A DNA stretch of 64,000 nucleotides from Candidatus Omnitrophota bacterium (lineage in GTDB: Bacteria > Omnitrophota > Gorgyraeia > Gygaellales > Profunditerraquicolaceae), in assembly GCA_017992455.1 (NCBI GenBank), contig JAGOOP010000004.1, positions 24,567 through 88,566 on the forward strand, in the 5' to 3' direction. A model generated the notes under the pieces. It was not told where the DNA came from. It worked only from the letters and a program-made list of their open reading frames with translations, and searched no databases. The translations under genes were made by a program, and so were the position numbers. Below are positions 31,863 through 60,326 of this stretch, one piece after another; the stretch's first letter is position 1; every line of letters begins with the position of its first letter.

Positions 31863-32219
31863 TTAGAATCTCTGGCTGGTCTTGATGCCCTGGCTGCGCA
31901 GCTGGGCAAGCTTTTCCCTGGAGCACCGGGGGCACAGAAAAACCGCAGGCGCGTCGGTCCGGTCGTAATCCCTGGCCTTCACCAGCCTGCGCAAAGGCGC
32001 CTCTTTCCCGCACCGGTCGCAATGCCCCATGTCCTTGACATGCCAGACCTCGAATACGGCAGAGGTAAAGATGAATTTATCGACCCAGAAGAATATGGCT
32101 CCTCCGATAAGGTTGGCGATGACCGTCGACCAGATACCGGCGCCGAGACGGCGCACGACGAGCCACAATATCGGCGTGCTCAACTGCCACCTGATCAGAT
32201 AAAAAATAAATCGTTTCAT
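31863..32219 (-). CDS. hypothetical small membrane protein with C-terminal CxxC...CxxC zinc-ribbon
   Basis: 118 aa, two hydrophobic helices, CDRCG...CPRC. Confidence 0.45.
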   Translation of the reverse strand: MKRFIFYLIRWQLSTPILWLVVRRLGAGIWSTVIANLIGGAIFFWVDKFIFTSAVFEVWHVKDMGHCDRCGKEAPLRRLVKARDYDRTDAPAVFLCPRCSREKLAQLRSQGIKTSQRF

Positions 32220-33353: not shown

Positions 33354-33845
33354 TTATTTCTTATACCCTACATACCAGATACCGATGATCGCGCCCGAAG
33401 AATCCTTGATGGGCTCATACCCGGTCTCATATTTCTCTCCCAGGATATCCGCCTCGCCATAGAACGCCTCGCCTGCCTTGATCTTCTTGATGGCGGCGCC
33501 GTTGGGGTCCAAAAGCGTTCCGACAGCCCTGTTGCCGTCCTTGATGACATTGGTGGAGATACGCTTGAAATCATTGCCGACTTTGGCAAAGATCGTGGCG
33601 GTGCCGCCGTAATTATCGGCGATCTCATCGACGATGTCGTAATTGCCGTTCATCTCGTCCTCGCCGAACATCAACGTGCCGCTGTCGAGTGCGGGAGCGC
33701 CGAGCGCCAAGGTCTTGTCCTCAAGCGCCTTGATGGCGGTCTTCACTTTTTCCTCAACGCTCTGGGCGTAAAGGAACCCGGCGCCGGCGAAACACGCAAC
33801 GACCAGAACCACCAGTATTGCAACTGCTTTCATGTACCCTTTCAT
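33354..33845 (-). CDS. secreted/anchored stand-alone Cache (Cache_3-Cache_2-like) sensor-domain protein
   Basis: Signal/anchor MKAVAILVVLVVACFAGAG; GGTATIFAKVGNDFKRISTNV...GNRAVGTLLD...YGEADILGEKYETGYEPIKD...GIWYVGY; no transmitter domain. Confidence 0.75.
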   Translation of the reverse strand: MKGYMKAVAILVVLVVACFAGAGFLYAQSVEEKVKTAIKALEDKTLALGAPALDSGTLMFGEDEMNGNYDIVDEIADNYGGTATIFAKVGNDFKRISTNVIKDGNRAVGTLLDPNGAAIKKIKAGEAFYGEADILGEKYETGYEPIKDSSGAIIGIWYVGYKK

Positions 33846-33898
33846 TTCCCGCTCCTTTCGTATAAGTTCAACCGTCGTTCCTTATCCTGACGATCACG

Positions 33899-36049
33899 CT
33901 ATGCTTTTTCTGATCTCTCACCTCCCCGTTGATTTGATGCTGCGGCGGCTTCAGTGGAATCAAGCTTGAATTTGCTGACGATCGACATAAGATCAGCGGA
34001 CAGCCGCGCAAGCTCCTGCGCGGACGCGGACATTTCCTGCATGGAAGCGGTCTGCTCTTCGGTGCTTGAGGTCACTTCCTGCGCGGTCGATGCGGACTCC
34101 CGGGCGATCTTGACGACCTCATTCAGGCTCTTGACCACCTGTTCGACCTCGATGATGATCTGATGGCCGAATGCGACGATCTCAGAAGTTACGCCTGATG
34201 CGCTCTTGGCAGCCTCGGTGATGCCGTTCAGGACCGCAGAGATATTGGTAACCTGCGTTTTTCCTTCCTGCACCTCTTTGGAGCTCACATCGATGGCGTT
34301 GACCGCGTGCGTGGTCTCGGTCTGGATCGAACGGATCAGGCCGCCGATCTTGCGCACTGCCTCGGCAGACCCTTCGGCAAGTTTCCTGACCTCTTCTGCG
34401 ACGACGGCAAACCCGCGTCCTGCCTCGCCTGCGCGCGCCGCTTCGATTGCCGCGTTCAAAGCAAGGAGATTGGTCTGGTCGGCGATAGACGTGATCGTCT
34501 CGGTGATCTCGCCGATCTGCTGGGACATCTGGCCGAGCTTCTGGATGACCTGCGCGGTATCGGTAACGGCGCTTGTCAGCTGCTCGATCTTGGCCACCGC
34601 GACATCAGCGGCTTTTTTGCCCTGCATTGCGGTGTCGCTCGCATCGGTAACGGTCTTATTCGCGGTTTGCGCATTATCGACCATCTGTTTGATGCTCGCC
34701 GATGCCTTTTCCATGGTCTCGAACGTTTCGTCGATGCGCTGGGCCTGGGTCTCCGCGCCCTTGCTCACTTTCGTGATCGCGGTCGAGACTTCCTGGGTGG
34801 TCGCGTTCATCTCCTCGGAAGAAGAGGACATCTCCTGAGCGGAACTCGCCACCTTATTCGCCGACATGCGCACCTGCGTGATTATATTGTTCATGGTCTT
34901 GACGATGTCGTTGAAGGCATTGGCCATCATGCCCAGCTCATCCTTGCTTTTGATCGTAACGCGCTGGGTCAGGTCGCCGTTGGATATCGGCACGCTCGTG
35001 TCGATGAGCGCCTTGACGGGCTTGTTGATCGACGTAACGAGCACGAAGGAAATGAGGAGGCCGAGGAACACGGATATGACAAATCCGATGATCATGACGA
35101 CCGAGGTGCCTGACAGGGAATTGACCGACCTCTTCGAAGCGGCGGAAATATCCTTGATGCTGACCTCGGAGTTCTCCTTGACAAGCGCGAGGATCTGATT
35201 GGACAGATCGTCCAGTTTCTTTGCCTCTGCGTCCTTTTGCTGCCACTTCTGCGCGAATGACGCGTATGCGGCCTTTGTGTTGTCTGAGGCCTTCTGGATA
35301 TCGTCAAGCATCTTGCGCAGCGCCTTATGCCGCACATTGGTTATCTTTTTCAACTCTCCGACGATCTTGTTCACCTGGACGAACAGGACATTCGCATCGG
35401 TTATAACCCTCGGATTGCGGGTCACCTGCGCGCGCATGCCCACTTTATCGAGCTTGAACGCCAGATCGTTGAGATCCTTGACATATTGTATCTTGTTCAG
35501 CCGGTCCTGGAGTTTCTCCGCCTTGACCCCGACGGCGATCTCGCCCGACATTTCTCCGAGCTGGACCTTAAGGAATGCGGCAGCAGCGTCGAGGTAGACC
35601 CTGCCGGCGTCGGTCGCTTTTCCGCGCTCGGTATTAAGGCCGTTGGTGAGCTCCACGATCTGGTTCAACCCGCGCTCGTAATTTTTGAGCATCGCGTTCA
35701 TCTTACCGACAGAATCTTCCAACTGTTTAAGCCCGGAGGATTTCTTCGCCACCGCTTCCGCTTCCCCGAGAAGCTTTTTTGTCTCTTCAAGGTCCTTGCG
35801 GATCGCGGCAAGCGTCTTTTTGTCCCCGCTGACAAGATATGCCTGCGTCAGGATATAGGTATTGGAGACCATGCGCTCTATCTGATTGGAAAGATTGACG
35901 CTCGGCAGGTTCTCGTTCGAGAGGACGCCGGTTATCGTCTTGACGCGGGACAGATTGACGATCGTCAGGGTCCCGACCAGGAGCAATAACCCGAGTATGA
36001 TAACGTATCCGCCGCCTATCTTCCACCCCAGTTTGATGTCTTTTAACAT
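33899..36049 (-). CDS. methyl-accepting chemotaxis protein with long helical periplasmic domain
   Basis: 716 aa; 2 TM, HAMP, signalling hairpin [32 protein letters not shown]. Confidence 0.9.
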
Positions 36050-36088
36050 GCTTCCCCCTTTTGTATTATGCCGTTCTCTCTCATAAAT

Positions 36089-36577
36089 CTACGAAACCGC
36101 TGCCGGCTTCACATGCCGCTCTACCTGCGCGAACTCATCAGGAGTGATGATCATGTTCAGGTCAAGAAAGACCAGGAGCCGGTCCTTGAGCTTGACAATA
36201 CCCCGTATATAATGTTCGGGGACCTCGGTGTTGACGAGCGACGGCACTTCTTCCATACAGCTTGATGAAAGGCGAAGGACCTCGGATACGGAATCCACGA
36301 TCATGCCCACGGTTTTCTTGCCCACTTCGACCACGATGATACGCGTGGTCTGGCCCCGTTCTTTTGATCTGAGGCCGATGCGTTTTGCCAGGTCGATGAC
36401 CGCAAGCACCTGGCCGCGCAGATTGACCGCTCCTTCGATGAAATCCGGAGCCTTGGGAAGATGGGTTATCTGCACAAGGCGGATGATCTCCCTGACCTGG
36501 TTGATATCCATGCCGAATTCCTGATCCCCGACCGTGAAAGCGACAAGCTGGTATTCTTTCGGTTTATCCTCAGCCAC
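36089..36577 (-). CDS. cheW: chemotaxis coupling protein CheW
   Basis: YQLVAFTVGDQEFGMDINQVREI; track start 36604 is TTG; GTG 36577 preferred (AGGAGG 4 nt upstream), ATG 36592 alternative. Confidence 0.85.
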   Translation of the reverse strand: MAEDKPKEYQLVAFTVGDQEFGMDINQVREIIRLVQITHLPKAPDFIEGAVNLRGQVLAVIDLAKRIGLRSKERGQTTRIIVVEVGKKTVGMIVDSVSEVLRLSSSCMEEVPSLVNTEVPEHYIRGIVKLKDRLLVFLDLNMIITPDEFAQVERHVKPAAVS

Positions 36578-36602
36578 GGCTCCTCCTGTCATGACCGTAA
36601 AC

Positions 36603-36644
36603 AAAAAAACGCCTCAAAGCAATGCACCCCATTGCCTTCAGGCG
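36603..36644 (-). terminator. intrinsic terminator/attenuator in the cheW leader
   Basis: 15-bp stem 36610-36624/36630-36644 (one mismatch, one G-U), 5-nt loop, then 7 U (plus-strand A run 36603-36609); sits between promoter 36709-36736 and cheW start. Confidence 0.5.
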
Positions 36645-36708
36645 ATTACAAAAAAACCCCATCATTTGAGCCAATTACCCACGGATAATCAGCATATTGT
36701 ATGGTCAT

Positions 36709-36736
36709 ATAATATCATATCGTTACTTTCTGTCAA
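36709..36736 (-). promoter_or_regulatory. sigma70 promoter upstream of cheW leader (TTGACA-16-TATTAT)
   Basis: Reverse strand TTGACA (36736-36731) gaaagtaacgatatga TATTAT (36714-36709). Confidence 0.5.
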
Positions 36737-36803
36737 TATATTTTTTTCTATACCCCTTGTTCCGCAATGTGTTGTGACGCCCTTTGATGTGATATGAAAT
36801 TTG

Positions 36804-36831
36804 TTGCCTGCGCATGGATTTTTGTTATAAT
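36804..36831 (+). promoter_or_regulatory. sigma70 promoter for PilZ gene (TTGCCT-16-TGtTATAAT, extended -10)
   Basis: TTGCCT 36804-36809; TATAAT 36826-36831 preceded by TGT. Confidence 0.5.
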
Positions 36832-36859
36832 ATCCCTGAGCACAAACACGGAGGCGTTT

Positions 36860-37147
36860 ATGCAGGAAAGACGCAAAACCGGCAGGTTACCGCGCCAGGA
36901 ACGGACGTTCATCGAGCACGGTGCAGGAAAAAAAGAAACCATCCTTCTTGACATCAGTATCGGCGGCATGCGCGTCCAGCTTGATGAAGCCATGAAAGTC
37001 GGCACTCCGCTGACGCTCAAAGCCAGCATCCTGCCCCACGCAGGCGCCTTCTTTATGGCAGGGACCGTGACCTGGGTCAAAGAAAGCTCTCCCGGCGTTT
37101 ACGAAACCGGCGTCAAATTCAACAAAGTAAGCACCATACCGCTCTAA
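36860..37147 (+). CDS. stand-alone PilZ-domain protein
   Basis: ORF 36794..37147; ATG 36860 after GGAGG; RRKTGR (RRxxxR) and DISIGG (DxSxxG). Confidence 0.8.
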   Translation: MQERRKTGRLPRQERTFIEHGAGKKETILLDISIGGMRVQLDEAMKVGTPLTLKASILPHAGAFFMAGTVTWVKESSPGVYETGVKFNKVSTIPL

Positions 37148-37149
37148 AA

Positions 37150-37190
37150 CAAGGGGACGGTTCTCAAAGAACGAGAACCGTCCCCTATGT
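37150..37190. repeat. family-2 hairpin repeat, solo copy
   Basis: AGGGGACGGTTCTC aaagaac GAGAACCGTCCCCT + ATGTTT; same core as 1451-1493 and 48706-48752; starts 3 nt after PilZ stop. Confidence 0.75.
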
Positions 37191-37226
37191 TTCCGCTGTA
37201 ACTGGCAAAAGAACATTATACGGAAT

Positions 37227-37279
37227 AAAAAGAGACGGTGTAATTTTGTGATCCTCTCAAAATTACACCGTCTCTTTTT
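37227..37279. terminator. bidirectional terminator hairpin between convergent PilZ and MCP genes
   Basis: 21-bp perfect stem AAAAAGAGACGGTGTAATTTT / AAAATTACACCGTCTCTTTTT, 11-nt loop; A/T runs on both sides. Confidence 0.7.
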
Positions 37280-37286
37280 ATTCTAT

Positions 37287-39041
37287 CTACGCTTTTTTGC
37301 CTGACGCAGCTGATTTCTCGTCCAGCTTGAATTTGCCGACCATTTCTTTCAGGTCCATGGCCAGGCGCGCGAGCTCCTGCGCAGATGCGGACATCTCTTC
37401 CATCGACGCAGTCTGTTCCTGCGTGCTCGACGACACTTCCTGGACGGTCGAGGCCGATTCCTTCGCGATCGCAGCGACCTCGTTGATCGCCTTGACCACA
37501 CGCTCGACCTCGACGACTAATTGCTGTCCCGATTCCGAGATCGAACTGGTCACGCTCGATGCATCCCGCGCGGTTTTATTGATCTCGGTCAGGACGTCTG
37601 CGATCTTGGCAACCTGCGTCTTGCCTTCCATGACCTCTTTCGAGCTCATTTCGATGGCGCTGACCGCATGGCCCGTCTCGGACTGGATCGAGCGGATCAG
37701 GCCGCCGATCTTGCGCACTGCCTCGGCAGACCCTTCGGCAAGCTTCCTCACCTCTTCTGCAACGACCGCAAACCCGCGTCCTGCCTCGCCTGCGCGCGCC
37801 GCTTCGATTGCCGCGTTCAAGGCAAGGAGGTTGGTCTGGTCGGCAATAGACGTGATCGTTTCGGTGATCTCTCCGATCTGCTGGGACATCTGGCCGAGGT
37901 TCTGGATGACCTTTGCCGTATCCATAACGGTCCCTGCAAGCTTCTCGATCTTGTCAACGGTCAACTGCGCGGTATTGCGGCCTGTTTCGGATACGGAACT
38001 CGTCTGCTCGACTGCCTTGTTGGCGCTTTGAGCGCTTGCGACCATGGTCTTCAGGCTCGCGGCGGTCTTTTCCATGGTCATGAACGTTTCTTCGACGCGC
38101 TCTGCCTGGGTATTCGCGCCTTTTGAAACCTTCTGAACGGCTGTCGAGACTTCCTGCGTGGTCGCGTTCATCTCTTCGGAAGAGGAGGACATTTCCTGCG
38201 CGGAGCTGGCGACCTTATCGGCGCTCGTGCGCACCTGATACACGACATTATGCATTGCGGCGATGATGCTGTTGAACGCCTGGCCGATCCTGCCCAATTC
38301 GTCCTGGGTCTTGATATTGATCTTGGCGGTCAGGTCGCCGGAGGTGACCGGGGCCGTGCCTTTGATAAGGATTCCGACGGGATTGGTGAGCATCCTGCGC
38401 ATCAGGAATGTGACCAGGACGATCATCAGGATCAAGCCGATGACGGAAAATACTATGTTGTTGAACTGTGTCTTGCGCATCGCAGACTCGATAGGAGCCC
38501 AGTCGAGGCAGATCCGCAGGACTCCGAGCCATTCCATCTTGGCGCCGTGGCAGTTATGACAGCTTTTTTCGTTCGGGATGGGCTTGAGGACCGTAAAGAC
38601 CCTGCCTTTGGCGTTGCGGCGCGGCTCAAGGCCTTCGAAATGCGCGCCGTCAAGCGCCGCGTTCAGGTTCTTTTCGATGACGGACTGATCGGCCTTGACG
38701 TCGAGCTTTTTGCCGTTCAACGCTGTATCCGTCGCGCGCTTGACCTCGCCTGAATGCTCGGTCAGCTGCATCTCGACAATGCCCTTGACGTTCTTGAATT
38801 GATCGAACTGCATCTGGATGACGTCCTGATCCCCGGTCATCATGGGATACCTGATGGCGGTCATGACCGTGTCGGCCAGTTCAAGCGCAGCGTTCTTCTC
38901 GCGGTCGAACAATGTATCGTTCTGCGACGCCACGTTCATGAACGTGATGATCGCCAGGCTCAACACCAATCCCGCGCTCAGCCATACGGCAAGCTTGTTC
39001 CCTATGGATTTTTTTACATTGAAGATCTCGATCATATCCAC
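37287..39041 (-). CDS. methyl-accepting chemotaxis protein with periplasmic c-type haem-binding motif (CxxCH)
   Basis: 584 aa; TM1 - ~150-aa periplasmic domain containing [13 protein letters not shown] - TM2 - HAMP - MCP signalling domain. Confidence 0.85.
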
Positions 39042-39062
39042 CCCGCTTTTATCAAGTCCCTG

Positions 39063-39494
39063 TTAGAAATCGGCAGTTCTGTGCGTTTTCATGCAGATAT
39101 GGCACTGAATGCACACGTCCTTGTCCCGGACATACGATTTCATCGCCTGCATAGCGACCCTGTCCCCGGGATTCGAGGCATGTAAGCCTCCTGCCCCGTG
39201 GCACGCTTCACACTGCTTATAACGCAGATGAGGCGTCTCGTCTTCCGAAACATAACCGCCGGGCTCCCCGTATCCGGTCACATGGCATTTCAGGCATTCG
39301 GGATCCTTTGTCTTGCCCCGCATCTTGAGCACCGCCCATGCCTTGGTGAATTTGCGCGCTTCGAAATCCTTATACTGCTGGGGATGGCAGCCTTTGCATT
39401 TTTCCGCGCCGATGAACTGGTTCTCCTGAGCGGACGCCGCAGCGGCAACGGAAATGAAACAAACCGCCAGCACATACATGATCGCCTTTTTCAT
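39063..39494 (-). CDS. periplasmic tetrahaem cytochrome c
   Basis: ORF 39063..39587 trimmed to ATG 39494 (AAGGAGG 6 nt upstream); Sec signal MKKAIMYVLAVCFISVAAAASA; CKGCH, CLKCH, CEACH, CIQCH. Confidence 0.85.
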   Translation of the reverse strand: MKKAIMYVLAVCFISVAAAASAQENQFIGAEKCKGCHPQQYKDFEARKFTKAWAVLKMRGKTKDPECLKCHVTGYGEPGGYVSEDETPHLRYKQCEACHGAGGLHASNPGDRVAMQAMKSYVRDKDVCIQCHICMKTHRTADF

Positions 39495-39555
39495 TGCATA
39501 CCTCCTTGATTGCGCTTTGGGATAATCATCCTTACTGCTTACAATCACTGGACTT

Positions 39556-39583
39556 ATCATAGCGTAATTCCTGCCTCTGTCAA
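39556..39583 (-). promoter_or_regulatory. sigma70 promoter for cytochrome c / haem-MCP operon (TTGACA-16-TATGAT)
   Basis: Reverse strand TTGACA (39583-39578) gaggcaggaattacgc TATGAT (39561-39556). Confidence 0.5.
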
Positions 39584-39599
39584 GCATAAAATGGAACGG

Positions 39600-39767
39600 T
39601 TATTCTTTTTTCCCGCTTTTGCGGTCCTCATCGCTGCCTGACACGTTCTTCTTGAATTCTTTGATGCCCTCGCCCAATGATCGCGCGATCTGGGGTATCT
39701 TTCCCGCCCCGAAGATCAGCAGCACGATCAGCAAAATGATCAATAACTCACCCATTCCGAATCTCAT
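39600..39767 (-). CDS. tatA: twin-arginine translocase subunit TatA (55 aa, below ORF-track cut-off)
   Basis: Own translation: MRFGMGELLIILLIVLLIFGAGKIPQIARSLGEGIKEFKKNVSGSDEDRKSGKKE; AGGAGG 7 nt upstream of ATG 39767. Confidence 0.8.
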   Translation of the reverse strand: MRFGMGELLIILLIVLLIFGAGKIPQIARSLGEGIKEFKKNVSGSDEDRKSGKKE

Positions 39768-40500
39768 GAACCTTCCTCCTCTCGATGAAACGCGCGACCA
39801 TGATCCCTGTTTCGAACAATACCAGAAGCGGCAACGCCATCAGGATCTGCGAAAAAACATCGGGCCCGGGCGTGAGCGCCGCCGCGGCGATGAATATAAA
39901 AACGATGATGAACCTTCTCTGCCTGCGCAGCGTCTCAGACCTGAGGATCCCTGCCTTTGCCAGAAATCCGATGGCAAGCGGCAGTTCGAAGATGCATCCG
40001 AACGCGAACACCATGGCGAACACGAACGACAGATACCGCGAAATGCTGATCATCGGCACCAGCACATCGGAGCCGTATGCAAGGAGAAACCCGACCCCGA
40101 CGGGCAATATCAAAAAATAGCAGAACGACGCGCCTGTTGCAAAGAGCAGGACGGAGATGACGGTGATACGGCCCGCCATGTGTTTTTCTCCGGGCATAAG
40201 CCCGCGCTCGATAAAACTCCAGAACTGAAAAAGAACGAACGGCATACTGACGAACAACCCGAGAAAAAAAGCGAGTTTGAACCGTGTCCAGAACGCCTCG
40301 ACCGGCCCGGTGAAAATGAACGTTCCGACGGGCCTGGCAAGGTCCCGGATAACGATGTCAACCGCCGGATATACCGCAAACCCGCAGGCAGCCACCGCGA
40401 GCAAGGAATAGATAAGCCGTTTTTTCAGCTCCTCGAGATGCACAAGAAGCGGGATCGGCTCATCAAACCGGCCGGTCTTTTGTTTCGTCTTTATATCCAA
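39748..40500 (-). CDS. tatC: twin-arginine translocase subunit TatC
   Basis: 250 aa, six hydrophobic segments, LVHLEELKKRLIYSLL N-terminal motif. Confidence 0.85.
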   Translation of the reverse strand: MDIKTKQKTGRFDEPIPLLVHLEELKKRLIYSLLAVAACGFAVYPAVDIVIRDLARPVGTFIFTGPVEAFWTRFKLAFFLGLFVSMPFVLFQFWSFIERGLMPGEKHMAGRITVISVLLFATGASFCYFLILPVGVGFLLAYGSDVLVPMISISRYLSFVFAMVFAFGCIFELPLAIGFLAKAGILRSETLRRQRRFIIVFIFIAAAALTPGPDVFSQILMALPLLVLFETGIMVARFIERRKVHEIRNG

Positions 40501-40696
40501 GCTTTCTTTCGACTTCTTCCTTTATATCTACCGGCGGCTCCTGCTCGAGCGCCTCTTTCAGGTCCATGGTCGCGCGCTTGAACGACGCCATTGCTTTGCC
40601 CAGCTGACGGCCGAGGTCAGGCAGGCGTTTGGGCCCGACGACCAGCAGGGCGACGACAAACACCAGAAGGAGCTCGGGCATGCCGACGTTGAACAC
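40463..40696 (-). CDS. tatB: twin-arginine translocase TatB-like (TatA/B family) subunit
   Basis: MFNVGMPELLLVFVVALLVVGPKRLPDLGRQLGK; GTG start 1 nt after hypA-like stop. Confidence 0.75.
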   Translation of the reverse strand: MFNVGMPELLLVFVVALLVVGPKRLPDLGRQLGKAMASFKRATMDLKEALEQEPPVDIKEEVERKLGYKDETKDRPV

Positions 40697-40697
40697 G

Positions 40698-40934
40698 TCA
40701 GTTCTCCACTTCCAGTTCTATGACGCGCGACTCAAGATCATCCCCCTGGACGACGTCGAGCCGCGAATCCTCGGCGAGCGTGCCTTTGGCGACCATCTCG
40801 AACGCATGGGTCAATGATTCGGGCGTCGTATGGCCGTCATTGCCCAGCTCTACCTTGATCGACCGGACCCGCTTGCCGCCGGCCTTTTGAAGGCACAGGC
40901 TCAACACTTCTTTGGCCACTCCGACCTCATGCAT
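40698..40934 (-). CDS. hypA: HypA-like nickel metallochaperone lacking the zinc-finger domain (78 aa)
   Basis: ORF 40698..41030 trimmed to ATG 40934 (GGAGGAAA RBS); MHE nickel-site N-terminus; no CxxC...CxxC block. Confidence 0.6.
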   Translation of the reverse strand: MHEVGVAKEVLSLCLQKAGGKRVRSIKVELGNDGHTTPESLTHAFEMVAKGTLAEDSRLDVVQGDDLESRVIELEVEN

Positions 40935-41373
40935 GCTGTATTTCCTCCAGTACGAGCTGTCCGAGCCTCGGCAGGGCTGCCCGGACCTCGTCGGTAAGTT
41001 CCATGCCCCAATCGACGGTCTTCGGTTCAACGCCGAAAACAGTGACCTGCGGCATGGCGCCGGTAAGCTTGACGATATTAAAAATATCCTTCAGGCACAC
41101 ATCGTGCAGCGATGTCTGAGGGAATGCCTCGACCTCGAAATCCTCGGGGGCGAATTTATAGATATCCCCGGGAACGCCGTCCGCCTGCACCGCGTCGACG
41201 ATAACAACCCGGTCGGAACCCTCGATAAAACTCAGCAGGTCAAACCCGCCCGTTGCTCCGTCGACCAGCTCCACGTCTGCGGGAAGTTTTTCCTTTTGCA
41301 AATAGCGTATCAGATGGACCCCGATACCCTCATCCCGGAACAACAGGTTGCCGCAGCCGATGATCCGCTTCAC
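40927..41373 (-). CDS. [NiFe] hydrogenase maturation endopeptidase (HyaD/HybD family)
   Basis: IIGCGNLLFRDEGIGV, VIVDAV, SLHD motifs; GTG 41373 two nt after large-subunit stop. Confidence 0.8.
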   Translation of the reverse strand: MKRIIGCGNLLFRDEGIGVHLIRYLQKEKLPADVELVDGATGGFDLLSFIEGSDRVVIVDAVQADGVPGDIYKFAPEDFEVEAFPQTSLHDVCLKDIFNIVKLTGAMPQVTVFGVEPKTVDWGMELTDEVRAALPRLGQLVLEEIQHA

Positions 41374-41375
41374 CG

Positions 41376-42791
41376 TTATACGACGCGGAATTTCTTCATC
41401 TCGCCGCTCGGCTTGATCAGATGCACCGCGCAGGCGATACAAGGGTCGAACGACCTGACGATCCTGACCACCTCAAGCGGATTATCCGTATCGACGATGG
41501 ACGTGCCGACAAGCGCCTCTTCGACCGGACCGCGCGCGCCTTTGTCATCGCGGGGAGCGCAGTTCCATGTCGTGGGCACCACTGCCTGATAATTATCGAT
41601 CTTCTTATTGGCGATCTTGATCCAGTGGCCTAAAGCGCCGCGTGCGCCTTCGGTCAATCCCATGCCTTCGCCTGAATCCGGGACCTTCGTTTCCGCGCAG
41701 GCAGGCTGCCCGGGTTTCAATTGCAACACCCATTCCTCCAGGGCATCGGCGAGTTTCTTCGCCTCGAGCGCGCGCGCAGCATGGCGGTCGATGACGGATA
41801 TGCCCTGGCGGTAATCGCCGTTGACCCACATGCGGGCAAGAGGACCGACTTCATACGGCTGGTTATCATACCGGGGAGCCTTGAGCCACGAATAACCGCC
41901 GGATTTCTCCGCTTCGGGATCAGTCACGCCGTCCGAGGGCTTCTTGCCTGAACTCGAGTTCTTGTAATAAGAGTATTTGACGTCTTCGGTTATCTTGTTG
42001 GCGTCAAAATCAAGCACCCGGTCCTTGGAAAAACGGCCTGCCTTGAACAACTTGCTCTTTCCGGCCGTATCGAGCGGGAACGCGCCGTAGGAAAGCAGAT
42101 TGCCGTATCCGCGGCCGATCTGCTTGTAATCGGAATAGATATCCGCGACGCCGAGCACATCGGGGATGTACACGTCGTTGACGAACGCCTTGATCTCGCG
42201 CAAGCGCCACAGGAACGACGCGATCTTGTCAACCGAAGGCGTGCATGTCACTCCGCCGACGACCATTGCCGTCTGCGGAGGCATTTTTCCGCCCCATATC
42301 GCCAGCATCTCGTGACACTTCTTGCGCATCTCAAGCGCCTGGAGATAATGCGCAACATAGGTGTCGTTGACCTTTGGCGGAAGCCGGAAATCGCCCGAAT
42401 ACCGCGGCACGAACGGCGGGATCGCCGGCCCGTTGACATAATCGAGCGCTGCAAGATGGTAGAAATGCAGGATATGCGACTGCAGATGGTTGGCGCCGAG
42501 CATCAAGTTCCTGATGATCCTTCCGTTGTCGGGAACCGTGACCTTGAACGCGTCGTCAAGGCACATGATGGACGCGGTGCCGTGCGCCATGGGGCAGACC
42601 CCGCAGATGCGCTGCGTGATCTGACCTGCGTCGCGGGGATCGCGCCCCTTCAAGATGACCTCGATGCCGCGCCAGAGCGTTCCCGAACTGTATGCGTCGG
42701 TGACCTTGCCGTCATTGACCTCGACGGTGACCTTTAAATGCCCTTCGATCCTTGTTACCGGATCTATCGATATTTTCTGCGTAGCCATCAA
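41376..42791 (-). CDS. [NiFe] hydrogenase large subunit
   Basis: RIEGH, RICGVCPMAHG, C-terminal DPCIACAVH followed by a 14-aa tail; 471 aa. Confidence 0.9.
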   Translation of the reverse strand: MMATQKISIDPVTRIEGHLKVTVEVNDGKVTDAYSSGTLWRGIEVILKGRDPRDAGQITQRICGVCPMAHGTASIMCLDDAFKVTVPDNGRIIRNLMLGANHLQSHILHFYHLAALDYVNGPAIPPFVPRYSGDFRLPPKVNDTYVAHYLQALEMRKKCHEMLAIWGGKMPPQTAMVVGGVTCTPSVDKIASFLWRLREIKAFVNDVYIPDVLGVADIYSDYKQIGRGYGNLLSYGAFPLDTAGKSKLFKAGRFSKDRVLDFDANKITEDVKYSYYKNSSSGKKPSDGVTDPEAEKSGGYSWLKAPRYDNQPYEVGPLARMWVNGDYRQGISVIDRHAARALEAKKLADALEEWVLQLKPGQPACAETKVPDSGEGMGLTEGARGALGHWIKIANKKIDNYQAVVPTTWNCAPRDDKGARGPVEEALVGTSIVDTDNPLEVVRIVRSFDPCIACAVHLIKPSGEMKKFRVV

Positions 42792-42818
42792 AACCTCCTT
42801 ATATTATATATGGGCCCC

Positions 42819-43766
42819 TTATACGATCTCGCTGTCTGCCTTAGGCCACTGGTCCTTTGGCAATGCCGCATAGAACGGCGCTTTTCCGTCCGGGAAATCC
42901 TCGCTGCAGCAGCCGATACAGATGGAGCCGGCTCCGATACACCAGTTCACGCCGTTATTCCATTTGCGCAGCGGGCAATCTGAACTTGCCATCGGGCCTT
43001 TGCAGCCGAGATTGATCAAGCAGCCGGGATCGCCGAATTTCTTGGCGAATTTGCCTTCGCTGAAATACGAGAAGTTGGGGCAGTTTTGATGGACGGTCTC
43101 TCCGAAGAACAGTTTCGGACGGCCGAGCTTATCCAGTTCAGGGAGCCCGAACAACAACACGTGCACGACCGTTCCCAGGATCCAGTCAGGGTGCGGAGGG
43201 CATCCCATGATATTGATGATCGGCACGCCTGAGACGACCTGTGAGACCGGCTTGCATTCAGTCGGGTTCGGTTTGCCGGCTGGGATGCCGCCGAAAGACG
43301 CGCAATCTCCGACTGCAAGGATCGCTTTGGCCTTCGGGCCGATATCCTTGACCAGGTCCAGCATGGTCACTTCTTTGCCGTCTTTCTCGCCGAGCGTGCA
43401 ATACACGCCGTGATCTTTTGTCGGGACAGCGCCTTCCACAACAAGGAAGAATTCGCCTTTGGCTTTTTCCGCGATCGTATCGAGGTATGAGAATGCGAGT
43501 TCTCCCGACGCTGCCATGACGTTCGAATGATATTCAAGGCTGATGATCTTGGTGAGGACATCGGCGATCTTCGGATGCGCGGTGTTCAACAGCGATACGC
43601 TGCAGCCGGAGCAGCTTGCGCCCTGCAGCCAGATGACCGGCGGCCTCTTTGCCGCAGCTTCTTCCAATGCAGAAACGAGTTTCGGCACAGCCATCTGGGA
43701 AAGACCCATTCCCATTGCAGACGCGCTGCACAACTGCAAGAATTCACGCCTCGTAAGTTCCATCAT
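42819..43766 (-). CDS. [NiFe] hydrogenase small subunit, Tat-exported
   Basis: Twin-arginine signal LTRREFLQL; GASCSGCSVS proximal cluster motif; second ATG (43763) may be the start. Confidence 0.9.
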   Translation of the reverse strand: MMELTRREFLQLCSASAMGMGLSQMAVPKLVSALEEAAAKRPPVIWLQGASCSGCSVSLLNTAHPKIADVLTKIISLEYHSNVMAASGELAFSYLDTIAEKAKGEFFLVVEGAVPTKDHGVYCTLGEKDGKEVTMLDLVKDIGPKAKAILAVGDCASFGGIPAGKPNPTECKPVSQVVSGVPIINIMGCPPHPDWILGTVVHVLLFGLPELDKLGRPKLFFGETVHQNCPNFSYFSEGKFAKKFGDPGCLINLGCKGPMASSDCPLRKWNNGVNWCIGAGSICIGCCSEDFPDGKAPFYAALPKDQWPKADSEIV

Positions 43767-43812: not shown

Positions 43813-43843
43813 AAAAAAAGCCGAAAAAGATTCCTTTTTCAGC
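43813..43843 (-). terminator. weak terminator-like hairpin in the hydrogenase leader
   Basis: Minus strand GCUGAAAAAG gaau CUUUUUCGGC + UUUUUUU (plus A run 43813-43819); about 50-75 nt upstream of small-subunit start. Confidence 0.3.
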
Positions 43844-44050
43844 TTGCGAACACTTCAATGCGTGTCTTGACCCGTGGCAGCATTATCCTCCTGATTTGAC
43901 TATGGTTGTATCATAAAATAAAAAACATGTCAAGCAATTACGAAAGAAATCCGGGCACAGCGCATTGCGAGGAATGCGCGCAAATATACTTCTCATTTGC
44001 ATGTTTTGTGTTAGAATAGTGCCGAAGCTTTAGAAAAAGGATCCCTTCAC

Positions 44051-46342
44051 ATGCGATCGGCGTTCAAGATAGATATAGAGGGAGTTGTCCAGGGCGTCGG
44101 ATTCAGGCCGTTCGTGCACCGGCTTGCCAAGCGCCTGGGCATCGACGGATATGTGCTCAACACCTCGCAGGGCGTTTCCATCCACGCCGAAACTGACCGG
44201 CCGAAGATGAACGCATTCCTCAAAGCGCTTCAGGCGGAAGTGCCGCCGCTGGCGCGCATAACCGGAACGCGCGCCCGGGCCGCGGCCGCCGAGGGCATCA
44301 GCGGATTTTCCATCAGGGACAGCAGAAAAACCGCGGGGCATGCGGCGCTTGTTTCTGCCGATATCGGCACCTGCGTTGACTGCCTTGCCGAAATGAACAG
44401 CGATACCGACCGCAGATACCGGTATCCATTCATCAACTGCACGAACTGCGGCCCCCGTTTTTCCATCATACAGAACATGCCCTACGACCGTCCGGCCACC
44501 ACCATGAAGGCGTTCAACATGTGCATGGACTGCGCCACCGAATACAGCGATATGGATTCCCGGCGCTACCATGCCCAGCCCAACGCCTGCCCTATTTGCG
44601 GGCCGCAGGTATCGCTCGTGTGCGCAGGGCGCACGATCGCGGCCGGAGAAGATGCGATAACGGAGACCATTCGCCGGATCCGCGCAGGCTCGATCGTGGC
44701 GATAAAAGGCGTGGGCGGCTTCCACATCGCCTGCGATGCCCGCAACGGCATGGCGGTACAGCGGCTGCGCAGCCTCAAAAAAAGGCCGTCAAAGCCGTTC
44801 GCGGTCATGGTAGCGGATACAAAAAAAGCGCAGGCATTCGCCGAGGTGCCGCAAACGGAACAGGAACTGCTCAACAGCCCCGAGCGGCCGGTCGTGCTCC
44901 TGAAGAAAAAGGACAAAAACGGACTGTGCCCCGAATTAAGCCCGGACAATAATTATCTCGGGATCATGATCTGCTATACTCCGCTGCATTACCTGTTATT
45001 CGACCGCAACCTCTCCGACGGCAAGCCGCTCGACTGTATCGTCATGACAAGCGGCAATGTCGCGGACGAGCCGCTTGAGATCGACAACGATCAGGCGATG
45101 AGGAACCTGTCGGGGATCTGCGATCATTTCCTGGTCCACAACCGCGCGATCCATAACCGTGTCGACGATTCGATCGTCCAGGTGATGGACGGGAAGCCCG
45201 TCATGCTGCGGCGCAGCCGCGGATATGCGCCGTTCCCGTTCTTTGCGCAAAGGACCATGAAGCCGACACTTGCCTGCGGCGCCGAACTGAAAAACACGTT
45301 CTGCCTTGCTGATGGTCCGCGTTTTGTGCTCAGCCAGTATATCGGCGACCTTAAAACATACGCGACCTATCAGTTCTACCGAGAGGCGGTCGCGCGGCTC
45401 GAAAAACTTTTTAGCGTCAAACCCGCGATCGTGGCCCATGACCTTCATCCCGACTATCTTTCCACGCATTATGCCGCGGCATTGCGGGCCAAAAAGAAAA
45501 AACTCGCCCTCATCCCCGTACAGCATCACCGGGCGCACTGCGCCAGCGTCATCGCCGAACATGCGATCAAAGGAAAGATCATCGGCGTCTGTTTTGACGG
45601 GACCGGCTGCGGCGAAGACAACAGGATCTGGGGCGGAGAGTTCTTTCACGGAACGTTGTCGAACCTCAAGCGCGCCGGCCGCTTCGAATACGTGGCCATG
45701 CCCGGCGGGGATAAAGCGACGCAGGAGCCCTTCCGCATGGCCATCAGCTACCTTTATCAGGCGTTCGGCGAGGACATATACCGGCTCAACATAGGATTCA
45801 TAAACAAATACCAGAATTCACTCGCGGATTTCATCACGCTCGCAAAGCTCAAACCGGTCCTGACCTCAAGCGCAGGCAGATTGTTCGACGCGGTGAGCGC
45901 GATCCTGGGCATCTGCGACCGCATCACGTATGAAGCGCAGGCAGCGATCAGGCTGCAGATGTTCGCCGAACGTTCGCGGACGACAAAGGCCTACCGCTTC
46001 GGCATTTTTGAAGAAGAGAATATGCTGATCGTTGACAGCGGCCCGATGCTCGAACAGCTCGTCAAAGACCTCCGGGCGTATGTATCCCGGGAGGATATCG
46101 CGCGCAAATTCCATAACGGACTGGCAGGCCTTATCGCGCGCATGTGCGGGGCCATTCGCGCCAGGACAAAAACGGATACTGTCTGCCTGTGCGGAGGAGT
46201 GTTCCAGAACAAGCTTCTTCTCGAAACAACCGCGGGGCATTTACGCAAAAACAGATTCATTGTGTATTACAACGAAGTGCTGCCCTCGAATGACGGAGCG
46301 GTCTCGCTCGGCCAGGCGGCGCTTGCCAATGCAAAAAATTAA
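44051..46342 (+). CDS. hypF: carbamoyltransferase HypF
   Basis: Acylphosphatase start VQGVGFRPFV, two CxxC-x18-CxxC zinc fingers (CVDC...CTNC; CMDC...CPIC), YrdC and Kae1-like domains. Confidence 0.9.
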   Translation: MRSAFKIDIEGVVQGVGFRPFVHRLAKRLGIDGYVLNTSQGVSIHAETDRPKMNAFLKALQAEVPPLARITGTRARAAAAEGISGFSIRDSRKTAGHAALVSADIGTCVDCLAEMNSDTDRRYRYPFINCTNCGPRFSIIQNMPYDRPATTMKAFNMCMDCATEYSDMDSRRYHAQPNACPICGPQVSLVCAGRTIAAGEDAITETIRRIRAGSIVAIKGVGGFHIACDARNGMAVQRLRSLKKRPSKPFAVMVADTKKAQAFAEVPQTEQELLNSPERPVVLLKKKDKNGLCPELSPDNNYLGIMICYTPLHYLLFDRNLSDGKPLDCIVMTSGNVADEPLEIDNDQAMRNLSGICDHFLVHNRAIHNRVDDSIVQVMDGKPVMLRRSRGYAPFPFFAQRTMKPTLACGAELKNTFCLADGPRFVLSQYIGDLKTYATYQFYREAVARLEKLFSVKPAIVAHDLHPDYLSTHYAAALRAKKKKLALIPVQHHRAHCASVIAEHAIKGKIIGVCFDGTGCGEDNRIWGGEFFHGTLSNLKRAGRFEYVAMPGGDKATQEPFRMAISYLYQAFGEDIYRLNIGFINKYQNSLADFITLAKLKPVLTSSAGRLFDAVSAILGICDRITYEAQAAIRLQMFAERSRTTKAYRFGIFEEENMLIVDSGPMLEQLVKDLRAYVSREDIARKFHNGLAGLIARMCGAIRARTKTDTVCLCGGVFQNKLLLETTAGHLRKNRFIVYYNEVLPSNDGAVSLGQAALANAKN

Positions 46343-46347
46343 ACACT

Positions 46348-46566
46348 ATGTGCCTTGCCATACCGGTTAGAATCATCAAGCTCGACGGCACGCATGCCGA
46401 AGTGGATGCCAACGGCGTCAGGCGCGACGCGGACGTGCGGTTCGTGGACGATGTGAAAGCCGGCGACTATATCCTGCTCCACGCGGGGTTCGCCATCGAG
46501 AAGATAGACGAACAACAGGCGCGTGAAACGCTCGAATTGCTCAAAAACATCTATTACGACCAATGA
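46348..46566 (+). CDS. hypC: hydrogenase assembly chaperone HypC
   Basis: MCLAIP N-terminus, 72 aa. Confidence 0.9.
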   Translation: MCLAIPVRIIKLDGTHAEVDANGVRRDADVRFVDDVKAGDYILLHAGFAIEKIDEQQARETLELLKNIYYDQ

Positions 46567-47648
46567 AATATATCGACGAGTTCCGCGACAAAGAGATCGT
46601 CAAAGGGCTGATCTCGGCCATCAATGCGTCCGCCCGCGCAAAGATCAACCTCATGGAAGTCTGCGGCACGCACACCATGGCGATCTTCCGGTCGGGGATC
46701 AAGCAGATCCTGCCCTCCTCGATCGATCTCATCTCAGGCCCGGGCTGCCCGGTGTGCGTGACGTCGCAATCGGATATCGACCGGATGCTGTCGCTGGCGC
46801 GCAATAAGGATATCGTCATCACGACGTTCGGCGACATGCTCAAGGTCCCGGGGACAAAAGGGTCGCTTGAAAAAGAGAACGCAGGCGGCGCGGACATCAG
46901 GATCGTGTACAGCCCGCTCGATGCCCTTGCGATCGCAGGGCGCGAACCCCGGAAGGAAGTCGTGTTCCTTGCGGTCGGGTTCGAGACCACGGCGCCGGTC
47001 ATCGCTTCGGTCGTCAGCGATGCGGCGCAAAAAAAGATCGGGAATTTCTCGATCTACTCCTGCCACAAGACCATACCGCCGGCGATGAAAGCCCTGCTCG
47101 AAGCGCAGGAGCTTCAGATCGACGGGTTCCTGTGCCCGGGCCATGTGACATCGATCATCGGATCGCGCGCATATGACTTTATCGCAGCCGATTACGGCAT
47201 CCCCTGCGTGGTAAGCGGGTTCGAACCGACGGATATACTCGAGACCGTGCTGATGCTCATCCGGCAGAAAGAAAAGAACCGGGCCTGTGTCGAGGTCCAG
47301 TACGCGCGCGCGGTCCGGCGGCAAGGCAATGTAAAAGCGCAGGAAATGATGGACAGGGTTTTCGAGCCGGCTGACGCTGACTGGCGCGGACTGGGCAGCA
47401 TACTGCAGAGCGGCCTGCGGCTGCGCACAGCATATCGTTCGTTCGACGCGGCTGTCAAATTCCGGATACCCGCTTTCAAAACAACCGAACCCCGGGGATG
47501 TATGTGCGGGGAGGTCCTGCGGGGCGCCAAAACGCCGCAGCAGTGCAGGTTATTCGCAAAGGCCTGCACGCCGGAAAACCCGTTCGGTCCGTGCATGGTA
47601 TCGTCCGAAGGGACCTGCGCGGCGTGGTTCAAATATAACAGGGGTTAA
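46563..47648 (+). CDS. hypD: hydrogenase formation protein HypD
   Basis: MEVCGTHT, GPGCPVCV, FEPT motifs. Confidence 0.9.
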   Translation: MKYIDEFRDKEIVKGLISAINASARAKINLMEVCGTHTMAIFRSGIKQILPSSIDLISGPGCPVCVTSQSDIDRMLSLARNKDIVITTFGDMLKVPGTKGSLEKENAGGADIRIVYSPLDALAIAGREPRKEVVFLAVGFETTAPVIASVVSDAAQKKIGNFSIYSCHKTIPPAMKALLEAQELQIDGFLCPGHVTSIIGSRAYDFIAADYGIPCVVSGFEPTDILETVLMLIRQKEKNRACVEVQYARAVRRQGNVKAQEMMDRVFEPADADWRGLGSILQSGLRLRTAYRSFDAAVKFRIPAFKTTEPRGCMCGEVLRGAKTPQQCRLFAKACTPENPFGPCMVSSEGTCAAWFKYNRG

Positions 47649-47651
47649 AAC

Positions 47652-48668
47652 ATGGACGAAAAAATATTATTAGCGCACGGTTCAGGCGGAAAGCTGACGC
47701 ACCGGCTCTTAAGCGAGATCGTGTTCCCCGCGTTCTCCAATCCGATATTGAAAAAATGCGAGGACGCAGCTGTGGTGCCGATGGAGGGCAGATGCGCGTT
47801 CACGACCGATTCATTCGTCATCCAGCCGGTATTCTTTCCCGGCGGCGACATCGGGAAGCTTGCGGTCTGCGGCACGGTCAATGACCTTGCGGTCATGGGC
47901 GCCCGCCCCCGATACCTCACCGCCGCCTGTATCATAGAAGAAGGGCTGGAGATCTCCGTCCTGCGAACGGTCGTCGCGTCCATGGCTCAGGCGGCAAAAA
48001 AAGCGGGCGTTCAGATCGTCGGCGGGGACCTGAAGGTCGTTGAAAAAGGCGCCTGCGATAAGATATTCATCAATACGACAGGCATCGGGCTCATCTTGAA
48101 AACCTGCCGCATCTCCGCAAATAATGCCCGGCCCGGAGACTGCGTCATCATCAACGGCACGATCGGCGATCACGGCGCCGCGGTCATGTCAGCGCGCAAA
48201 GATTATAAGCTGCGCAGTTCCATCCGCAGCGACTGCGCCTGCCTCAACGGCCTTATTGAACGCGTACTCCGTGCCGCGCCGGGTGTTCATGTCATGCGCG
48301 ATCCGACGCGCGGCGGCGTGGCGACCACGCTCAAGGAGATCGCGCTCCAGTCGAATGTGGAGATACTGATCGAAGAAGACGCCCTGCCGGTAAACGGCCC
48401 GGTGCGCGGCTTATGCGAAATACTCGGCATCGATCCGCTCTATATGGCCAACGAAGGCAAGGTGCTCGTATTCGCCCCGGCCAAAGACGCTCAAAAGATC
48501 ATAGCCGCCATGCGAAAACATCCGCTCGGAAAACGCGCAGCCGTCATCGGCCGCGTAACAAGCCAGCCTGCCCGTTCGGACACCCCGCATGTGCTCCTCC
48601 ACACCTCCATCGGCTCCACCCGCATCATCGACATGCTCTCCGGCGGCCAGCTCCCCCGCATCTGCTAA
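47652..48668 (+). CDS. hypE: carbamoyl dehydratase HypE
   Basis: AIR-synthase-like fold, C-terminal PRIC. Confidence 0.9.
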   Translation: MDEKILLAHGSGGKLTHRLLSEIVFPAFSNPILKKCEDAAVVPMEGRCAFTTDSFVIQPVFFPGGDIGKLAVCGTVNDLAVMGARPRYLTAACIIEEGLEISVLRTVVASMAQAAKKAGVQIVGGDLKVVEKGACDKIFINTTGIGLILKTCRISANNARPGDCVIINGTIGDHGAAVMSARKDYKLRSSIRSDCACLNGLIERVLRAAPGVHVMRDPTRGGVATTLKEIALQSNVEILIEEDALPVNGPVRGLCEILGIDPLYMANEGKVLVFAPAKDAQKIIAAMRKHPLGKRAAVIGRVTSQPARSDTPHVLLHTSIGSTRIIDMLSGGQLPRIC

Positions 48669-54040: not shown

Positions 54041-54044
54041 ACCG

Positions 54045-60320: not shown

Positions 60321-60326
60321 AAAATA

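Follow-up and report, generated by a model that had tools for sequence, protein, structure and literature searches.

The Hydrogenase, Cytochrome, and Chemoreceptor Genes

The window discussed here is a 64-kb stretch of DNA from a Candidatus Omnitrophota bacterium (assembly GCA_017992455.1, contig JAGOOP010000004.1, positions 24,567–88,566), and the block under study occupies its positions 33354–43766. Gene content was established from a listing of open reading frames (ORFs) and from Pfam and NCBIfam scans. The block groups genes for a [NiFe] hydrogenase and its maturation, genes of the twin-arginine translocation (Tat) system, a small tetrahaem cytochrome c designated cyt4, a methyl-accepting chemotaxis protein (MCP) with a haem attachment site in its periplasmic domain, a PilZ protein, and a second set of chemotaxis genes. 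A first-pass annotation of this DNA had read the whole block as a single module for H2 or redox taxis; all the genes that it named were found by the scans where it had placed them, on the minus strand except for the PilZ gene, which is on the plus strand. The genes of the hydrogenase, its protease, cyt4, and the haem chemoreceptor are located as follows:

42819–43766, minus strand: [NiFe] hydrogenase small subunit (PF01058 and PF14720, Oxidored_q6 and NiFe_hyd_SSU_C)
41376–42788, minus strand: [NiFe] hydrogenase large subunit, 470 aa, a Cys variant belonging to the [NiFeSe]-type clade (PF00374, 474 bits)
40927–41373, minus strand: HycI/HybD-type maturation endopeptidase, 148 aa (PF01750; TIGR00072, 139.8 bits; gene call)
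39063–39494, minus strand: cyt4, c554-family tetrahaem cytochrome c, predicted to be Sec-exported, 143 aa (PF13435, 62.1 bits)
37287–39035, minus strand: haem-c chemoreceptor, 582 aa, with a transmembrane segment, an sCache_haem domain, a second transmembrane segment, a HAMP domain, and an MCP signalling domain (MCPsignal and HAMP matches)
38838–38849, minus strand: YPMM motif of the haem MCP (translation and alignments)
38547–38561, minus strand: CHNCH haem-attachment motif in the periplasmic domain of the haem MCP (translation)

The small subunit of the hydrogenase carries the twin-arginine motif RREFLQ (within MMELTRREFLQ), has no C-terminal membrane anchor, and matches TIGR00391 with a score of 288.7 (cutoff 179.5). 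The large subunit matches the NCBIfam NiFeSe_hydrog equivalog NF033181 (699.6, cutoff 600), and its best PDB matches are the [NiFeSe] enzymes of Desulfovibrio vulgaris and Desulfomicrobium baculatum (E ~1e-150). It contains the Ni-binding motifs RICGVC and DPCIACAVH, the latter followed by a 14-residue C-terminal extension. The Ni site is encoded with a Cys codon (DPCIAC) and no in-frame TGA is present, so the enzyme is a Cys variant and not a selenocysteine protein; it falls below the cutoffs of the strict HysA model (618 against 780) and of the corresponding small-subunit model (398 against 470). Membership of the regulatory hydrogenases (group 2b, HupUV/HoxBC) was considered and rejected, since the Tat signal, the C-terminal extension, and the HycI protease are all present; the system may nevertheless work like a regulatory hydrogenase.

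The first-pass annotation had likened cyt4 to the classic tetrahaem electron acceptor of sulfate reducers, a likeness that does not extend to the protein family. The protein matches PF13435 (Cytochrome_C554) at 62.1 against a cutoff of 20.8, its best PDB match is Nitrosomonas cytochrome c554 (1BVB, E 6.7e-8), and class III cytochrome c3 was rejected, as there was no PF02085 match and Cytochrom_c3_2 reached only 22.4 (cutoff 25). The four CxxCH motifs are invariant in 31 homologues. The AlphaFold2 (AF2) model of cyt4 is of low confidence (pLDDT 62, pTM 0.36), which is expected for a multihaem protein modelled without its haems. Some variation in the cytochrome gene is worth mentioning: the cyt4 orthologue at L012:12062-12727 has only two of the four CxxCH motifs in its longest ORF, for which a frameshift, misassembly, or genuine decay could be responsible. 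L101 (1988-2960) and L102 have a tandem pair of cyt4 paralogues ahead of the haem MCP, and two cyt4 genes are also present on several other Omnitrophota contigs (e.g., P0211/P0220 and P0186/P0228).

In the haem MCP the CHNCH motif falls between two hydrophobic segments of the window sequence, and the motif is found at the same aligned position in 8/8 orthologous sensors, in agreement with the periplasmic haem site proposed at first; in the L089 orthologue, whose sensor is 87% identical, the hydrophobic segments lie at about residues 11–35 and 189–215, with CxxCH between them. A profile of the eight orthologous sensors matches, over the whole domain, the Geobacter sulfurreducens sensor structures 3B42 (GSU0935, E 4.5e-5) and 3B47 (GSU0582, 1.6e-3). 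A YPM(M) motif, itself invariant, falls opposite the MM of the segment GYMMKGD when the GSU0935 chain is aligned. We take this segment to hold Met60, the numbering of the chain being assumed. The distal haem ligand of GSU0935 is Met60 (PMC8396549). The AF2 model of the sensor (pLDDT 76) has a single-Cache fold in which a helix of residues 122–128 carries C124, C127, and H128 between strands 110–119 and 134–143, an arrangement that fits the description of sCache_heme in a 2026 preprint, with a short CxxCH-bearing helix inserted between two Cache-fold strands (PMC12889525). In a fold search with this model the top matches were the extracellular sCache domains of WalK (TM-scores 0.68–0.75); 3B42 and 3B47 gave low TM-scores despite the highest identity because their crystal forms are swapped dimers. 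By profile, motif, and modelled fold, the haem MCP appears to belong to the already described GSU0935-type sCache_heme family. A covalently bound haem c whose His/Met ligation changes with redox state or ligand has a sequence correlate in the window sensor and is predicted on that basis.

Stand-alone paralogues of the sensor, of about 250 aa, were also noted in Omnitrophota (L169:920-1687, L170:3153-3920; proteins P0123-P0129). They consist of a short cytoplasmic N-terminus, a transmembrane segment, an sCache_haem domain with both YPMM and CxxCH, and a second transmembrane segment, with no output domain. One of them, P0128, is encoded in the same metagenome-assembled genome (MAG) as L007, between fbaA-like and ilvD genes and with no cytochrome nearby. 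The sensor-profile protein search that gave these paralogues yielded 10 proteins and missed the known orthologues.

Linkage of the Hydrogenase, cyt4, and the Haem Chemoreceptor

The conservation of the gene neighbourhood was analysed in two sets of loci. A scan with a large-subunit alignment, limited to one genome per species, gave 80 loci, which were annotated by tblastn with the window proteins, and 80 further loci came from scanning metagenomes with an alignment of cyt4; context look-ups added Pfam-annotated gene calls. After the removal of duplicates, with lineages of less than 95% large-subunit identity counted, the large subunit, cyt4, and the haem MCP were found linked in 12 lineages, with identities to the window proteins of 60–91% for the large subunit and 29–87% for the sensor; CxxCH keeps its aligned position in all of these sensors. 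The adjacency, which the first-pass annotation had made a touchstone of its proposal, is therefore conserved well beyond close relatives.

Three architectures can be distinguished. In type A, the clade of the window (large-subunit identity of at least 79%), hypEDCF is divergent from a series comprising the small subunit, the large subunit, HycI, the truncated HypA, TatB, TatC, TatA, cyt4, and the MCP, followed by a convergent PilZ gene. In type B (62–66%), the order is era, small subunit, large subunit, HycI, cyt4, an outer-membrane barrel, and the MCP, and the haem MCP gene runs straight into a complete che operon, CheW-CheY-CheC-CheD-CheB-CheA. In type C (L014, with 60% large-subunit identity, and L100), the small subunit, the large subunit, and HycI are followed by the MCP and then by cyt4, with gaps of 12–25 nt and unrelated housekeeping genes on the flanks. 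The linkage of the trio thus persists through swaps of gene order (MCP-cyt4 in L014 and L100) and the insertion or absence of tat and barrel genes, and no other redox partner gene adjoins the hydrogenase in any of the three architectures. Since the adjacency recurs in 12 lineages with differing flanks and gene order, it is, as judged from these comparisons, more than chance. The loci compared also indicate that the conserved core comprises the hydrogenase with its protease, cyt4, and the haem MCP, and is smaller than the 10.4-kb block. Neither cyt4 nor the MCP was found in any of about 70 relatives of the hydrogenase from Firmicutes, Chloroflexi, and other groups (0 of ~70), and in L015, the one Firmicutes relative checked, a cytochrome b gene follows the large subunit.

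By tblastn, none of cytochrome b, CheA, CheB, CheC, CheD, and the type B barrel is encoded in the 64-kb window, which bears out the earlier statements that the hydrogenase lacks a cytochrome b partner and that the window contains no cheA or cheY. Of the proteins of the che system CheW alone is present, and the sole CheY-like match in the window is a 305-aa response regulator at 53345–54262.

The type B barrel suggests a further interpretation, in which cyt4 and the barrel would form a porin-cytochrome-like conduit and the receptor would report extracellular redox conditions, such as minerals or partner cells, the hydrogenase being an incidental or alternative input. An Alginate_exp-like barrel of 435–453 aa indeed lies between cyt4 and the MCP in five type B loci (L008, L088, L105, L172, and L173; coordinates L008:12685-14001 and L088:12890-15883), L088 having an extra DcaP-like barrel. 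Yet types A and C, the window included, have no barrel gene, AlgE-like barrels are generic porins, and a tetrahaem protein of 120 aa is short for spanning the outer membrane, so that a conduit of this kind appears very improbable.

The cyt4-Sensor Pair without a Hydrogenase

In two loci, L105 and L106, the order is era-cyt4-barrel-MCP-che, the genes of the small subunit, the large subunit, and HycI being missing exactly between era and cyt4. The L105 locus (L105:6945-17159) retains cheW-Y-C-D-B-A after the haem MCP. That these loci represent the ancestral state was rejected: their sensor nests within the hydrogenase-bearing type B (63% identity to L173), so the loss of the hydrogenase is secondary.

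Two other contexts extend the distribution of the pair. Homologues of cyt4 with 34–41% identity, encoded on metagenome contigs and in one Proteobacteria MAG, lie 4–100 nt upstream of genes for sCache_haem histidine kinases, whose PF21563 scores of 29–33.7 bits are above the cutoff; these cassettes belong to sigma-54 or phosphorelay clusters. In the third context a cyt4 homologue (39–46% identity) is followed after about 96 nt by a gene for a protein of 283–305 aa with two transmembrane segments and no Pfam match. This pair of genes is present in L118, L122, L129, L132, L138, L140, L154-L162, and others, and in L148 (9902-13650), the one locus analysed beyond it, the 283-aa two-transmembrane protein is succeeded by a histidine kinase of the sCache_3_2-HAMP type and then by a response regulator. 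Judging from these gene neighbourhoods, cyt4-type cytochromes recurrently precede periplasmic sensors, cyt4 and the haem sensor form the deeper and more general unit, and the most constant partner of cyt4 is the sensor and not the hydrogenase. Since the pair survives where the hydrogenase is absent, the receptor probably reads cyt4, with the hydrogenase as a lineage-specific input. The earlier proposal that the receptor reads the hydrogenase-cytochrome pool is accordingly retained as to the linkage of the trio, which is conserved, and modified as to what would be read.

These separations also bear on a more conventional explanation, according to which cyt4 is a plain respiratory acceptor, like the c3 of Desulfovibrio, feeding membrane complexes encoded elsewhere, and the MCP responds to an unrelated ligand and was co-inherited by vertical descent. 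It would account for a soluble hydrogenase without any other partner gene, for the cytochrome b found in the equivalent position in the Firmicutes relative L015, and for the origin of most linked loci from Omnitrophota and the Planctomycetes-Verrucomicrobia-Chlamydiae (PVC) group. What makes it improbable is that, on separation, cyt4 stays with the sensor and not with the hydrogenase, both in L105/L106 and in the histidine-kinase loci, that the trio held together through repeated changes of gene order, flanks, and inserted genes, and that the sensor carries a redox cofactor, not a ligand pocket.

A Proposed Redox Relay

The arrangement of the locus can be read as a redox relay from the hydrogenase through cyt4 to the haem of the sensor, giving H2 or redox taxis, a reading to which we assign a probability of roughly one half on the basis of gene content and linkage. 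The soluble, Tat-exported [NiFeSe]-type hydrogenase, devoid of a cytochrome b or anchor, would oxidise H2 and reduce the small c554-family tetrahaem cyt4, which in turn would exchange electrons with the single c-type haem in the sCache_haem domain of the chemoreceptor. By analogy with GSU0935, reduction would switch the sensor haem from a high-spin His/water to a low-spin His/Met state, and the change of conformation would be relayed by the HAMP domain to CheW and CheA. Swimming or another Che-controlled output would then follow the H2-dependent reduction state of the periplasm, amounting to H2 or energy taxis. In such a scheme cyt4 and the haem sensor would be a general cassette into which the hydrogenase was wired as an input by Omnitrophota; the small PilZ protein may add a cyclic di-GMP (c-di-GMP) input in the window clade, and cheW-MCP2-Cache would be a later insertion sharing the same signalling class.

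In the Geobacter receptors GSU0582 and GSU0935 the haem undergoes a redox-linked switch, being high-spin when oxidised and low-spin His/Met when reduced, with midpoints of −156 and −251 mV, respectively (PMC8396549). Our own Nernst estimate gives, for 1–10 Pa H2 and pH 7, a potential of about −266 to −296 mV; set against the GSU0935 midpoint, this range implies that a GSU0935-like haem would titrate at environmental H2 levels.

Several observations weigh against the relay. Firstly, the evidence for it is wholly comparative: its support is synteny. The identities of the genes, their conserved linkage, and the conserved CxxCH and Met motifs are shown, and from these we infer the electron-transfer steps, the spin switch, and the behavioural output. 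Moreover, the linkage lies mostly within one phylum (Omnitrophota/PVC), so that common ancestry makes independent observations seem more numerous than they are. In the window itself, cyt4 and the MCP have a promoter-like site of their own and are set off from the hydrogenase by the tat genes, and the haem MCP scores just below the cutoffs of both relevant families (PF21563, 25.9 bits, cutoff 27; PF11845, 21 bits, cutoff 24.1). The loci L105 and L106, which lack the hydrogenase genes precisely, imply that the pair works without an adjacent hydrogenase, and the histidine-kinase cassettes have no hydrogenase within 10 kb. Finally, a signalling-linked sCache_haem protein was reported in a 2026 preprint to bind NO tightly, and such domains were argued to be NO sensors (PMC12889525).

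The last point leads to the likeliest of the alternatives, though still an unlikely one, namely that the haem MCP is a gas sensor for NO and possibly CO. On this account cyt4 and the hydrogenase would keep the haem ferrous or would be unrelated neighbours, and H2 would not be the signal. The sCache_haem-HAMP protein of P. azotoformans dissociates NO slowly, like NosP and H-NOX (PMC12889525), GSU0582 and GSU0935 bind NO and CO with displacement of Met60 (PMC8396549), and the fold of the window sensor and its CxxCH helix fit that family. Gas sensing, however, leaves unexplained both the dedicated tetrahaem cytochrome tied to the sensor gene in three output classes and the hydrogenase linkage that survives rearrangements in Omnitrophota. 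NO sources are, besides, not obvious in methanogenic or anoxic habitats, and the distal Met is retained just as it is in the Geobacter sensors, for which redox state has been proposed as the stimulus. The redox relay explains the cyt4-sensor pairing together with the persistent linkage of the hydrogenase better than each of the rivals does. The wider proposition that the Omnitrophota hydrogenase is the front end of a chemoreceptor, acting via cyt4, and that c554-like cytochromes at the same time serve sCache_haem (and some sCache_3) sensors across phyla as obligate partners for redox input, is put forward only tentatively, as rather less probable than the relay itself.

Accessory Genes and the cheW-MCP2-Cache Insertion

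The remaining features of the block, together with the maturation genes beside it, are the following:

44051–48668, plus strand: hypF-hypC-hypD-hypE maturation genes, divergent from the hydrogenase genes (Pfam; gene calls)
40698–40934, minus strand: truncated HypA-like protein, 78 aa (PF01155)
40463–40696, minus strand: TatA/B-family protein, 77 aa (PF02416)
39748–40500, minus strand: TatC (PF00902, 208.8 bits)
39600–39767, minus strand: TatA, 55 aa (PF02416)
39556–39583, minus strand: promoter-like element between tatA and cyt4, TTGACA-16-TATGAT, 11/12 positions (consensus match only)
37152–37278, minus strand: two hairpins resembling terminators, in the interval where the haem-MCP and PilZ genes converge
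36860–37147, plus strand: single-domain PilZ protein, 95 aa, convergent (PF07238, 47 bits)
36709–36736: promoter-like element before cheW, TTGACA-16-TATTAT (consensus match only)
36089–36604, minus strand: CheW (PF01584)
33899–36049, minus strand: second MCP (MCP2) with a helical periplasmic domain of about 300 aa (MCPsignal and HAMP; weak 4HB_MCP_1 match)
33354–33845, minus strand: secreted or anchored protein with a single sCache_3_3 domain (PF17202 and PF17201)

In the HypA-like protein the PF01155 match covers HypA positions 1–65 of 112, corresponding to the N-terminal MHE nickel domain without the zinc domain; the protein is below the NCBIfam cutoffs, yet it is kept in the type A relatives. 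No hypB or full hypA is present within the cluster. An ORF of 118 aa at 31863–32219 on the minus strand, 8.5 kb from the HypA-like gene, has predicted N-terminal transmembrane helices and a CxxC...CxxC zinc ribbon and matches the C-terminal half of HypA weakly (E 7e-4); it may be unrelated. The three tat genes share an operon with the small-subunit gene, and their frames overlap or abut. TatC and TatA are as first annotated, while the identity of the presumed TatB is ambiguous, the 77-aa protein scoring just under the cutoffs of both the TatA/E and the TatB models. A gap of 105 nt separates the tat genes from cyt4, and about 27 nt separate cyt4 from the haem MCP gene. The separate promoters formerly assigned to cyt4 and cheW are represented by promoter-like hexamers, which are consensus matches only; strong hairpins, likewise consensus matches only, lie 3' of the haem MCP and Cache genes. 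A 12-bp stem-loop with a T run at 43818–43845 (minus strand) falls in untranslated sequence just upstream of the small-subunit start, where hypF and the hydrogenase genes diverge; it may act as an attenuator or be a match by chance. An Rfam scan of the whole window revealed no riboswitch or leader RNA, and no c-di-GMP riboswitch ahead of cheW. Further along the window, at 58514–63266 on the minus strand, the System II cytochrome c biogenesis genes (CcsA, ResB/CcsB) are clustered with genes for a class III aminotransferase (HemL-like) and an AhbA/B-like sirohaem decarboxylase, which is consistent with active c-type haem synthesis via the alternative haem pathway.

The PilZ protein has RxxxR (RKTGR) and DxSxxG (DISIGG) motifs, from which c-di-GMP binding is predicted. 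A convergent PilZ homologue of 40–61% identity follows the haem MCP in the type A loci L087, L090, L092, L095, L171, and L178; PilZ is absent from type B and C loci. Other PilZ proteins were seen nearby: an alanine racemase-PilZ fusion at 4711–6165 (minus strand) in the window, and a protein of about 250 aa encoded between hypF and hypC in the relatives with 79% large-subunit identity (L087:5673-6422; L171:1321-2079).

Three relatives of type A, L087/L171, L092, and L178, have contigs that reach beyond PilZ, and none of them carries cheW-MCP2-Cache. In these the PilZ gene is followed directly by the epimerase gene that in the window follows the Cache gene, so cheW-MCP2-Cache is an insertion, found so far only in the window species. 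With this absence and the restriction of PilZ to type A, the 10.4-kb block cannot be upheld as one module. The window CheW is 60% identical to the CheW encoded after the haem MCP in L008, and no homologue of the sCache_3_3 protein was found at the other loci annotated. MCP2 and the haem MCP are 64% identical over 402 aa comprising HAMP and the signalling domain, their cytoplasmic parts being paralogous. The two genes share a stretch of 300 nt with 89% DNA identity (34219–34518 and 37580–37879), which suggests that the signalling tip was recently duplicated or underwent gene conversion.

Relation to Known Systems

The closest described counterparts of the sensor are GSU0582 and GSU0935 of Geobacter sulfurreducens (3B47/3B42; PF21563, PF11845), which likewise are MCPs with two transmembrane segments, one CxxCH, and a Cache/PAS-like periplasmic domain of about 150 aa, the MM of GYMMKGD in GSU0935 also aligning with a Met-containing segment of the N-terminal helix; sequence identity to the window sensor is, however, only about 21%. 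In the literature found, no paired cytochrome or hydrogenase is reported for the Geobacter receptors, whose physiological signal, redox state or NO, is undecided (PMC8396549, PMC12889525). DcrA of Desulfovibrio vulgaris is another haem-c periplasmic MCP of an anaerobe, the methylation of which depends on the haem's redox state (PMC2886117). It is likened here by description and not by homology; DcrA is read as an oxygen or redox sensor, with no dedicated cytochrome or hydrogenase linkage described. Energy taxis through Aer and Tsr also relies on receptors that read the redox state of an electron-transfer chain and not a ligand, but Aer does so with a cytoplasmic FAD-PAS domain reading the membrane chain, whereas in the present proposal the reader would be a c-haem in the periplasm and its object a soluble cytochrome.

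A [NiFe] hydrogenase heads an H2-reporting signal pathway in the HoxBC/HupUV systems with HoxJ/HupT (group 2b) as well (PMC6978683). Those enzymes are cytoplasmic, have neither a Tat signal nor C-terminal processing, contact the kinase directly, and control transcription, unlike the window enzyme, which is Tat-exported, protease-processed, and periplasmic, with a proposed link via a cytochrome to a chemoreceptor. The HysAB enzyme of Desulfovibrio, with c3, resembles the window system in being a soluble periplasmic hydrogenase of the same clade with no cytochrome b and a presumed soluble tetrahaem acceptor; the window enzyme differs in having Cys for Sec, and its cytochrome is of the c554 family (PF13435) and genetically tied to a sensor, not to respiratory complexes. 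Cytochrome c554 of Nitrosomonas europaea (1BVB) aligns with cyt4 over the first three haem motifs, including CxxCHxTG[YF]G, but it has 211 aa and serves hydroxylamine oxidoreductase, whereas cyt4, of about 120 aa when mature, is encoded in signalling gene clusters.

The individual parts, i.e., a [NiFeSe]-type hydrogenase, a c554-family cytochrome, a haem-c MCP, and energy taxis, are thus of known kinds, and it is their conserved combination that is new. A literature search yielded no paper in which a hydrogenase is connected with a chemoreceptor, or in which sCache_heme sensors are given a cytochrome partner. The first-pass annotation had considered the arrangement undescribed, which stands for the conserved combination and does not for the haem MCP, a type known from GSU0582/GSU0935 and sCache_heme; its interpretation as a whole is partly supported.

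Implications for Possible H2 Sensing in Omnitrophota

In the literature searched, H2 taxis is described only for Methanococcus maripaludis, with the receptor unidentified (PMC3817446), and chemotaxis is not mentioned in the survey paper on Omnitrophota. If the Omnitrophota hydrogenase does serve a chemoreceptor in this way, H2 taxis in bacteria would for the first time have a molecular mechanism. The wider proposition on c554-like cytochromes, if true, would establish a class of cytochrome-coupled sensor cassettes, their outputs being MCPs or histidine kinases, and would supply the physiological signal of the Geobacter-type haem MCPs. The recurrent pairing of a c554-like cytochrome with a periplasmic sensor, of which no description was found, points to sensors that need a protein electron donor. 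The cluster, joined to a che operon in some lineages, offers a concrete chain for in vitro reconstitution, and L105/L106, as a natural hydrogenase deletion, a useful comparison genome. For the uncultured Omnitrophota, the system would provide a plausible means to locate H2 sources in methanogenic and subsurface habitats.

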